A stretch of 64,000 bases of DNA from Escherichia coli. Its GTDB lineage: Bacteria > Pseudomonadota > Gammaproteobacteria > Enterobacterales > Enterobacteriaceae. The position numbers are program-made. Shown here piece by piece: positions 27,001 to 30,000 of this stretch; positions within the stretch are counted from its first letter, which is position 1, and every line of letters begins with the position of its first letter. The stretch lies in assembly GCF_017348835.2 (NCBI RefSeq), contig NZ_CP071375.1. The stretch is one strand, 5' to 3'.

Positions 27001-30000
27001 ACCACCGCCTGGGGGTTGACCTACGGCCTCGACTCGCACGGGATGTGGACGGTGCTGGCAAACCAGCAGGTAATGCAGTCTACCGACCCGCTCACCTGGT
27101 CGAAGACCGCGCTGACGCTGTATCAGAGCGGCAACAACTACGCCACCAGCTCCATCGCCGATTACGACCGTAACGGCACGGGCGATCTGTTTATCACCCG
27201 TGATGACTACGGTACAGGCTATATCAACGGCTTTACCAATAACGGCGACGGCACGTTTTCCAGCGCCATTCTGGTCACCGTCGGCACCCTGACGTGGTAT
27301 GGCTCGATTGTGGCATTTGATAAAGAGGGCGACGGCTATCTCGACTTCTGGATTGGTGACGCGGGCGGGCCGGACTCCAACACCTTCCTGTGGAACAACG
27401 CAGGTACGCTGGTAGGTAACTCCACCACGTCGAACAGCGGCGGTAGCGCCACGGTGGGCGGGGCGGTGACGGGGTATCTTTCGCTCAACGAAGGTTCTGG
27501 CGTCGATCTGAACAATGACGGCAGGATCGACCTGGTTCAGCACACCTACAACCTGAACAACTATTACACGCTGTCTTCGCTCATCAACCAGGGGAATGGG
27601 ACGTTTGTCTGGGGGCAGAACACCACCAATACCTTCCTGAGCGGGGCGGGTAGTGGCGCTATGAGCAGCAGCGTTTCCATGACCTGGGCCGATTTCGATG
27701 GTGACGGCGATATGGATCTCTTCCTGCCCGCCAGCCAGGGAAGAGCTAACTACGGCTCGCTGTTATTCAACACCAACGGTGTACTGGGTAGCCCGGTGGC
27801 GGTGGGCGCAACGGCAACCACCTACGCCAGCCAGTTTAGCCTGGCGGTGGACTGGAACCATGACGGTCTGATGGATATCGCCCGTATCGCCCAGACCGGA
27901 CAATCGTATCTTTACACCAACGTTGGTGGTGCCAGCAACTGGACACAATCGGCCCTCGGCGGCAGCCAGAGCGGTACCACCAGCGGCGTGGCGGCAATGG
28001 ACTACGACTGGGACGGCGCGGTGGATGTGCTGGTGACCAAACAGTCGGGCAGCGTGTTCCTGATCCGCAACACCAACACGGTGAGCTACGGCACTTCGCT
28101 ACACCTGCGCATCACCGATCCCAACGGCATTAACGTCTATTACGGCAATACCGTGAAGCTGTACAACTCGGCGGGAGTGCTGGTCGCCACGCAAATCATC
28201 AACCCGCAGTCGGGTATGGGGGTTAACGACACCTCGGCGCTGGTCAACTTCTACGGGCTGAATGCCGGAGAAACCTACAACGCGGTGCTGATCAAATCCA
28301 CCGGCACCACCGCCAGCAATATCGACCAGACGGTCAACACCAGCTGGGGTGGCTTACAGGCTACCGATGCCACCCACGCTTACGATCTCAGCGCCGAAGC
28401 GGGTACCGCGAGCAACAACGGCAAGTTCGTCGGCACCGGCTATAACGACACCTTCTTCGCCACCGCAGGCACCGACACTTACGACGGTTCCGGCGGCTGG
28501 GTGTACAGCTCCGGCACCGGAACGTGGCTGGCGAACGGCGGCATGGACGTGGTTGATTTCCGGCTTTCGACGGTGGGCGTGACGGCTAACTTAAGCAGCA
28601 CCGCCGCGCAGGCCACCGGTTTTAACACCTCGACATTTACCAATATCGAAGGCATTTCCGGCTCGAATTTTAACGACACTCTGACCGGCAGCAGCGGCGA
28701 TAACCAACTGGAAGGGCGCGGCGGCAACGACACGCTCAACATCGGTAACGGCGGCCATGACACCTTGCTCTATAAACTGCTTAACGCCAGTGACGCCACC
28801 GGAGGCAACGGCTCAGACGTGGTGAATGGCTTTACGGTAGGGACATGGGAAGGCACCGCCGACACCGATCGCATTGATATTCGCGAACTGTTACAGGGCA
28901 GCGGCTACACCGGCAACGGCAAAGCCAGCTACGTCAACGGCGTGGCAACGCTGGATGCGCAGGCCGGAAACATCGGTGACTTTGTCAAAGTCACCCAAAG
29001 CGGCAGCGACACCATCGTGCAGATCGACCGCGACGGCACGGGCGGCACTTTTGCGACAACTAACGTGGTCACGCTGACGGGCGTGCACACCGACCTCGCC
29101 ACCTTGCTGGCGAATCATCAGTTGATGGTGGTGTAGATAATGAAAAAAAATGCCCAGTCCGTGGAAGCCTGGCTGGAGGCGATGATCGCCGTGGCGCGTT
29201 ATTACCGTCTCGATTTTTCTCAGGAGAACGTGCGCGCAACCGTCAACTGGGAGCGCGACAGTAAGCGGGAGGAGTTACTCACCGACATGGCGCGGCAACT
29301 GGGAATGGGGCTGCGGCTGGTCGAGTTTTCCGCCGATTCGCTTAACCCCTGGCGGTTGCCGCTGATCGCGGTATTTGATAATCAGCAGATTGGTGTCATC
29401 ACCCGCCGCGATAATCATGACAATATTAGCGTTCAGTTCAGCGGTGACGAAGGGTTGGAAACCACGCTTAACGTCGCGGATGTCGAGGATAAAATCGTTG
29501 AACTGGCGCTACTGCGCCCGCTCAGCGCCATCCCTGACGCGCGGGTAGATGACTATATTCGTCCGTATCAGGCGAACTGGTTCTGGAATCTCTCGCTAAA
29601 AGACTGGCGGCGCTATGGCGATATTATGCTGGCGTCACTGGTGGCGAACGTGCTGGCGCTGGCGGCGATGATTTTCTCGATGCAGGTTTACGATCGGGTG
29701 GTTCCGGCGCAATCGTACCCGACGCTGTGGGTGCTGTTCGCCGGGGTGATGATGGCGATCCTGTTTGAGTTCTGTATGCGCATGGTGCGCACGCATCTAT
29801 CTGATGTGATCGGCAAGCGGGCGGACCTGCGTATTTCGGATCGCGTTTTTGGTCATGCGCTACGGCTGAAAAACAACGTGCGATCGAAATCCACCGGATC
29901 GTTTATCTCGCAGATCCGCGAGCTGGAATCGGTGCGGGAGCTTATTACGTCCACCACCATCGGCGCGGTGGCAGACCTGCCATTCTTCCTGCTGTTTGTC

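Follow-up and report, generated by a model that had tools for sequence, protein, structure and literature searches.

The stretch of DNA analyzed here (64,000 nucleotides of an Escherichia coli chromosome, contig NZ_CP071375.1; hereafter the window) encodes a type I secretion system (T1SS), the ATP-binding cassette (ABC) transporter of which is the subject of this work. Our analyses indicate that the N-terminal domain of this transporter is very probably a C39-like domain of the LssB/LapB type without catalytic activity, and that the transporter, the HlyD-type adaptor and the TolC-like channel would together export the giant adhesin SiiEA, with the domain most likely having a docking, chaperoning or assembly role by analogy with HlyB. 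The residues aligned with the catalytic cysteine, the catalytic histidine and the oxyanion glutamine of C39 peptidases are all replaced, and the protein exceeds the cut-off of the curated LssB family model.

Homology of the N-terminal domain to C39 peptidases

The ABC transporter is encoded by an open reading frame (ORF) of 720 codons, for which RefSeq predicts an identical protein (WP_089637322.1). Its start codon is secure, since the ATG at 29140 lies 3 nt past the stop codon of the adhesin gene (29134–29136), is the first start codon following an in-frame stop, and yields the same protein as the RefSeq annotation. Walker A, the LSGGQ signature, Walker B and the H-loop are all intact. The 29140–29600 segment corresponds to residues 1–154, that is, to the N-terminal domain and the linker following it.

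When single sequences were compared, the evidence for C39 homology was weak. The Pfam model PF03412 (Peptidase_C39) gave 15.5 bits with the ABC protein (E 0.015), under its gathering score of 22, and among the matches listed none of 120 homologues had a precomputed PF03412 match. Using the N-terminal domain alone as a phmmer query, the PCAT1 peptidase was reached at E 0.04 only. The full-length alignment to HlyB nevertheless ran from residues 10–701 of the E. coli protein to 9–694 of HlyB with the N-terminal domains included, and the alignment to PCAT1 behaved likewise. A homologue search with the 160-amino-acid N-terminal domain returned only short gene fragments, and an exhaustive search for representatives also yielded mainly fragments, which were diverse enough for building a profile. 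When the resulting profile of 34 diverse relatives was compared with the PDB, C39-type domains were the only matches: 3B79 (E 2.9e-10), the PCAT1 peptidase (1.6e-5), the HlyB C39-like domain (CLD; 4.1e-5), ComA (2.6e-3) and LahT (5.3e-3). Thus, the possibility that the N-terminus is not homologous to C39 domains at all was checked, and homology was upheld by both the end-to-end alignment and the profile search. A papain-like C39 fold was found at the exporter N-terminus, and the domain, the fold of which is confident, is kept in full. As judged from these sequence and profile comparisons, we consider it a genuine C39-like domain.

Residues at the catalytic positions

To assign the catalytic positions, HlyB and CvaB were aligned to the family profile by hhalign (probability 78% and 76%, respectively) and independently by MAFFT, where the C39 exporter of a Morganella locus (L069) was included as well. 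The N-terminal reference sequences of HlyB and CvaB were 100% identical to plasmid records, one of which is annotated as cvaB. The occurrence of residues was then counted in 100 distinct relatives, to which the frequencies given below refer.

The mappings of the catalytic positions agreed across the alignment methods. Ala10 aligned with the nucleophilic positions Cys32 of CvaB and Cys21 of PCAT1, with Tyr9 of HlyB and with a proline of 3B79; this position is occupied by Pro in 48, Ser in 16, Ala in 15 and Gly in seven relatives, and by Cys once. The sole relative with a cysteine here, P0238, is a 703-amino-acid metagenomic member of the family (..KICWLNS..), which has no histidine at the His position. 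Gln83 aligned with His105 of CvaB, and the adjacent Ile84 with His83 of HlyB; the former position is Gln in 70% of the relatives, the latter is Val or Ile, and His was found at neither of them. Asn4 corresponded to the oxyanion residue Gln26 of CvaB, at a position that is variable among the relatives. Since the positions of the catalytic Cys, His and oxyanion Gln are all replaced, the N-terminal domain is unable to act as a cysteine peptidase; the alignments with HlyB, CvaB and PCAT1 confirmed the loss of the catalytic Cys and His. The HlyB-type signature is missing, too. HlyB-type CLDs are considered to be marked by a Trp-His pair (PMC8277102), and at the position of HlyB Trp77 the E. coli protein has Val78, which is Glu, Gln, Asp or Val in the relatives and Trp in none. 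Of the triad, only an acidic residue is left close to where the Asp would lie, namely Asp103. It aligned with the Asp of the C39 "HDP" motif by MAFFT, whereas hhalign to HlyB placed that Asp at S101; position 103 is Asp in 71% and Glu in 20% of the relatives.

The conservation of this acidic residue and the presence of Ser at the Cys position in 16% of the relatives could be taken as traces of an enzyme whose nucleophile is not a cysteine or whose active site is unconventional. We regard this as extremely improbable, because the nucleophile position is Ala in the E. coli protein and most commonly Pro among the relatives, no relative has a His at the His position, and the substrate carries a secretion signal at the C-terminus and no N-terminal double-glycine leader. 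The invariant S27 was considered as a new nucleophile and rejected, as it aligns with a helix N-cap residue, which is Ser, Asn or Asp in PCAT1, HlyB and CvaB.

The absence of cysteines as such is less informative. The protein contains only two of them, C212 and C401, leaving residues 1–211 Cys-free, and H93 is the sole His ahead of the membrane domain. Assuming a typical proteome Cys frequency of approximately 1.16%, the chance of finding no Cys is about 0.085 over 211 residues and 0.17 over 150, and it rises to about 0.55 at the Cys frequency of the protein itself (2/720). Moreover, the domain contains one to three scattered cysteines in 37 of the 100 relatives, and HlyB carries Cys4 in its own N-terminal domain (sequence matched to the plasmid record). 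The original prediction had stated that the first ~200 residues are Cys-free and that the domain is, for this reason, no catalytic C39 peptidase. Both statements hold: the first Cys is C212, and the catalytic Cys, His and oxyanion Gln correspond to Ala10, Gln83/Ile84 and Asn4. In contrast, the Cys-free N-terminus does not stand as the hallmark it was taken for, because over a third of the relatives have Cys elsewhere in the domain and its absence fits chance. Cys absence alone is statistically unremarkable, "no cysteine" is a poor criterion, and it is the position-specific replacement of Cys and His that carries the information and is decisive.

Assignment to the LssB/LapB family

The ABC protein scored 837.8 bits with the TIGR03375 model (LssB family T1SS permease/ATPase; residues 10–703 of 720) against a cut-off of 693.1, while it reached 387.6 bits with the HlyB model TIGR01846, under the cut-off of 725.55. 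The NCBIfam bacteriocin-exporter model was not passed by the protein. The N-terminal domain alone gave the same preference, with E 1.2e-16 to TIGR03375 vs. E 3e-3 to TIGR01846. The domain of 3B79 likewise favors the LssB model over the HlyB model, and therefore represents a solved structure of the same domain type. Homologues with 68–75% identity are named "LapB" by JGI on a KEGG basis.

LapB-type N-terminal domains were described as having neither the Cys of C39 peptidases nor the Trp of HlyB (Smith et al., 10.1101/198937; J Bacteriol 2018). According to the same work, LapB-like transporters including LssB form a clade apart from the C39 and CLD transporters, and this clade is devoted to adhesins that carry a retention module at the N-terminus (10.1101/198937). 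The E. coli domain conforms to this description, having neither the C39 Cys nor the CLD Trp. Since Smith et al. reported this feature for LapB-type domains, a dead N-terminal domain in an adhesin exporter is already described for the family, and the observation made here is correct but ordinary, concerning a further member of a described family. Its significance hardly goes past correct annotation: it places the exporter in the LssB/LapB branch of T1SSs, which serves giant adhesins, instead of the bacteriocin or haemolysin branches, and helps to predict the cargo type from the transporter sequence.

The original prediction had assigned the transporter to the HlyB/LapB type and expected a very large adhesin as its partner. 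The LapB part of the assignment is supported by the TIGR03375 match, while its HlyB part fails both in the TIGR01846 score and in the missing Trp/His pair. The expected partner was found in the adjacent 6925-amino-acid SiiEA, though its gene is split by IS4 in this strain.

Conserved residues and proposed role

Several positions of the domain are specific to the family and nearly invariant. W11 (98%) directly follows the former nucleophile position and is replaced by Gly in C39 peptidases and HlyB; S27 (100%), W71 (92%), R72 (86%), P74 (100%), G102 (86%) and the acidic residue at position 103 (91%) show similar conservation. These residues (D103 included) are kept across Enterobacterales, Variovorax, Halomonas and Pseudomonas at a domain identity of 25–60%. 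The linker P132-D-A-R-V-D-x-Y139 is even more conserved than the N-terminal domain itself: D133 and R135 occur in 100/100, D137 in 98% and Y139 in 99% of the relatives. The MAFFT alignment revealed no counterpart of this PDARVDDYIRP motif in HlyB or CvaB. The loci of the relatives were gathered by the exact peptide PDARVDDY, which sampled one clade and did not reach P. fluorescens LapB or Legionella LssB.

In the reading we prefer, residues 1–130 have kept the papain-like fold and lost peptidase activity. The ABC transporter, the adjacent HlyD-type adaptor and the upstream-encoded TolC-like channel would then export SiiEA via an uncleaved C-terminal signal. By analogy with HlyB, the N-terminal domain, for which the fold, the residue replacements, the family membership and the gene neighborhood are borne out by the analysis, would most likely act as a cytoplasmic, non-catalytic module that docks, chaperones or assists the assembly of the unfolded giant substrate. 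Docking may occur via a family-specific surface formed by W11, W71-R72-x-P74 and S-G-D 101–103, and not at a site equivalent to Trp77/His83 of HlyB. The conserved residues listed above could guide mutagenesis of the N-terminal domain of adhesin exporters. The analogy draws on findings on the CLD of HlyB, an essential domain to which the unfolded substrate binds, which is chiefly responsible for substrate specificity and which contacts HlyD by a basic patch (PMC8277102, PMC11026475).

Four points weigh against this reading. The residue mapping comes from sequence and profile alignments, with hhalign probabilities of 76–78%. The substrate- and HlyD-binding residues of HlyB are not conserved, so the analogy would apply at the level of the fold only. 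The N-terminal domain is the fastest-evolving part of the protein, which fits co-evolution with the substrate but fits weaker constraint, too. Finally, Salmonella SiiF is reported to have an N-terminal CLD, the function of which was called uncharacterised in a 2025 review (PMC12607715).

A closer equivalence to HlyB, in which the domain would bind unfolded RTX repeats at HlyB's own site and dock the adaptor by a basic patch, is very unlikely, being refuted for the most part by the residue comparisons and the family models. Besides the low TIGR01846 scores of both the whole protein and the isolated domain, Trp77 and His83 of HlyB correspond to Val78 and Ile84 in the E. coli protein, with no Trp or His at these positions in any relative, and LapB-type domains form a clade separate from CLDs (10.1101/198937). 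At the positions of the five HlyD-contacting basic residues of HlyB (K56, K58, K62, R66 and R128; PMC11026475), hhalign placed only one basic residue, R59, in the E. coli protein. The N-terminus of the adaptor, a membrane fusion protein (MFP), consists of approximately 24 mostly basic residues ahead of the membrane helix (31299–31370) and contains no acidic cluster.

The domain could also be a functionless vestige, with the transmembrane domain (TMD) and the nucleotide-binding domain (NBD) doing all the work. Within the protein, it is indeed the domain that diverges most: per-domain BLAST to 68 homologues gave a median identity of 46%, compared with 78% (TMD) and 60% (NBD). A similar pattern was described for the HlyB/RtxB pair (48%, 79% and 73%; PMC11026475). 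In addition, all catalytic residues are gone, and some T1SS transporters, such as PrtD and HasD, have no N-terminal domain at all (PMC8277102). In HlyB, however, the one homologous system tested, deletion or swapping of the domain abolishes secretion (PMC11026475). Considering also the retention of a full-length domain with a confident fold and the near-invariance of W11, S27, W71, P74, G102 and D/E103 across distant proteobacteria, we regard a vestige as very unlikely.

A doubtful but possible alternative is that the LssB/LapB-type N-terminal domain represents a functionally distinct module, in which W11, W71-R72-x-P74 and S-G-D 101–103, together with the nearly invariant acidic linker P-D-A-R-V-D-x-Y, would form an adhesin-specific docking or gating site. 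Such a site could couple to the adaptor's short basic N-terminus, the charges being the reverse of those in HlyB/HlyD, or alternatively could deal with substrates of megadalton size, which an N-terminal plug causes to stall in the channel.

The presumed substrate SiiEA

The gene upstream of the ABC gene matched NF047714 (adhesin_SiiEA), named "BapA-related adhesin SiiEA" by NCBI. Its product has a BapA prefix-like N-terminal domain (NF033677, 69.9 bits), with no double-glycine leader at the N-terminus. The 3′ part of siiEA encodes a C-terminal T1SS target domain (TIGR03661). The gene is interrupted by IS4, flanked by the 13-bp target duplication GAGCCAGCAGCAG. In silico removal of IS4 together with one copy of the duplication restored a single 6925-amino-acid ORF with one cysteine. 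Because IS4 splits siiEA, the exporter of this strain probably lacks a complete cargo; the ABC and MFP genes are intact. The siiEA copy of O157:H7 PV15-279 likewise carries a pseudogene annotation (internal stop), and the ABC and MFP genes are intact there as well.

TAAG is the LapG-type di-alanine cleavage sequence of LapA. This tetrapeptide occurs at residues 97–100 of SiiEA (7208–7219), just past the BapA prefix-like domain, and is followed by a Gly/Ala-rich hydrophobic stretch at residues ~130–152 (~7307–7375). Both the prefix domain and the hydrophobic stretch recur in the related substrates of three further loci (L056, L059 and L067), but TAAG does not. No lapD or lapG is present in the RefSeq annotation of the whole window. 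In the Pseudomonas, Morganella and Halomonas loci, the ORFs of LapD/LapG size, inspected by eye without a systematic scan, look unrelated, being arginine decarboxylase-like, Nudix-like, TolC-like and CvaB-like exporter genes.

Locus layout and neighboring genes

In sequence, the window is 100% identical to the E. coli pig isolates PE164 and F2_81. The gene order in the window is copA, glsA, ybaT, the TolC-family gene, siiEA, the ABC transporter gene, the HlyD-type adaptor gene, cueR and the allantoin genes (Table 1). The start of the MFP gene overlaps the stop of the ABC gene by 4 nt. The transporter region is present in 958 of 5426 complete E. coli genomes, and the order of giant ORF, ABC and MFP genes recurs in the relatives' loci of other bacteria.

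Table 1. Positions of the T1SS components, the IS4 insertion and the key residues of the transporter within the window
Feature	Position	Strand	Basis
TolC-family outer-membrane component of T1SS	5462–6817	+	TIGR01844, 416 bits; RefSeq annotation
siiEA 5′ part (giant BapA-related adhesin, presumed substrate), up to IS4	6920–24318	+	NF047714 adhesin_SiiEA, 511.6 bits; RefSeq pseudogene
IS4 insertion, 1426 bp	24319–25744	+	18-bp inverted repeats; transposase 24403–25731; 13-bp target duplication 24306–24318 / 25745–25757
siiEA 3′ part, degenerate RTX repeats and C-terminal T1SS target domain	25758–29136	+	TIGR03661 T1SS_VCA0849
Complete T1SS ABC permease/ATPase, 720 aa, LssB/LapB family	29140–31302	+	TIGR03375; ABC_membrane 162–423; ABC_tran 497–640
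N-terminal C39-like domain within the ABC transporter, predicted non-catalytic, residues 1–130	29140–29529	+	
Ala10 codon (C39 catalytic cysteine position)	29167–29169	+	hhalign, MAFFT and phmmer alignments
Val78 codon (aligned with HlyB Trp77, which pi-stacks with H83)	29371–29373	+	Alignments
Gln83-Ile84 codons (C39 catalytic histidine position)	29386–29391	+	Alignments
Linker motif P132-D-A-R-V-D-D-Y-I-R-P142, between the N-terminal domain and the elbow helix/first transmembrane helix	29533–29565	+	Conservation in 100 relatives
HlyD-family membrane fusion protein (MFP, adaptor), 391 aa	31299–32474	+	TIGR01843, 330.5 bits

Between cueR and ybbJ (32882–34606, minus strand), two small hypothetical/lipoprotein genes are found along with a gene for a 338-amino-acid protein with a YadA C-terminal domain, that is, a trimeric autotransporter adhesin, which is a second adhesin gene adjoining the T1SS locus. 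Farther downstream, the interval that separates ybbP from mnmH contains a dinQ-type small type I toxin gene according to RefSeq (44160–44243, minus strand). Among the loci of the relatives, that of Morganella morganii (L069) contains a CvaB-like exporter gene with intact C39 Cys and His (5015–7129) approximately 3 kb upstream of an LssB-type one (9992–12142), which makes it a natural side-by-side case of active-type and dead-type domains.

Comparison with known systems

The true C39 exporters CvaB, ComA, PCAT1 and LahT have the catalytic Cys, His and Gln where the E. coli transporter has Ala10, Gln83 and Asn4. Their cargo is a peptide of <10 kDa with a double-glycine leader, whereas the E. coli cargo is a 6925-amino-acid adhesin. 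The HlyB CLD (PDB 3ZUA; HlyB/D 7SGR, 8DCK) resembles the E. coli domain in that the catalytic Cys is replaced and the C39 fold is kept, but its His83 is stacked on Trp77, in place of which Ile84 and Val78 are found in E. coli. HlyD has a long cytoplasmic N-terminus with an acidic cluster that binds the HlyB CLD; the N-terminus of the E. coli MFP is short and basic. The structure 3B79, a structural-genomics entry, represents the N-terminal "peptidase C39 like domain" of a toxin-secretion ATP-binding protein from Vibrio parahaemolyticus. It shows ~19–20% identity to the E. coli domain, and the W11 and W71-R72 residues that the E. coli clade conserves are missing from it.

The name of SiiEA as a BapA-related adhesin links the system to Salmonella BapA/BapBCD and SiiE/SiiCDF, the transporters of which were compared by description. 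According to the RefSeq annotation, the E. coli locus has no counterpart of the accessory proteins SiiA and SiiB of Salmonella pathogenicity island 4 (SPI-4). LapB-like systems were defined by linkage to lapD/lapG (Smith et al.), neither of which lies in the window. Apart from this difference, the closest likeness is to LapB of P. fluorescens and LssB of L. pneumophila, as drawn from the curated model and the published description rather than from direct alignment: the E. coli transporter passes TIGR03375, its N-terminal domain contains neither the C39 Cys nor the HlyB Trp, and it is accompanied by an MFP, a TolC-like outer-membrane protein and a giant adhesin with a BapA prefix-like N-terminus of putative retention type.

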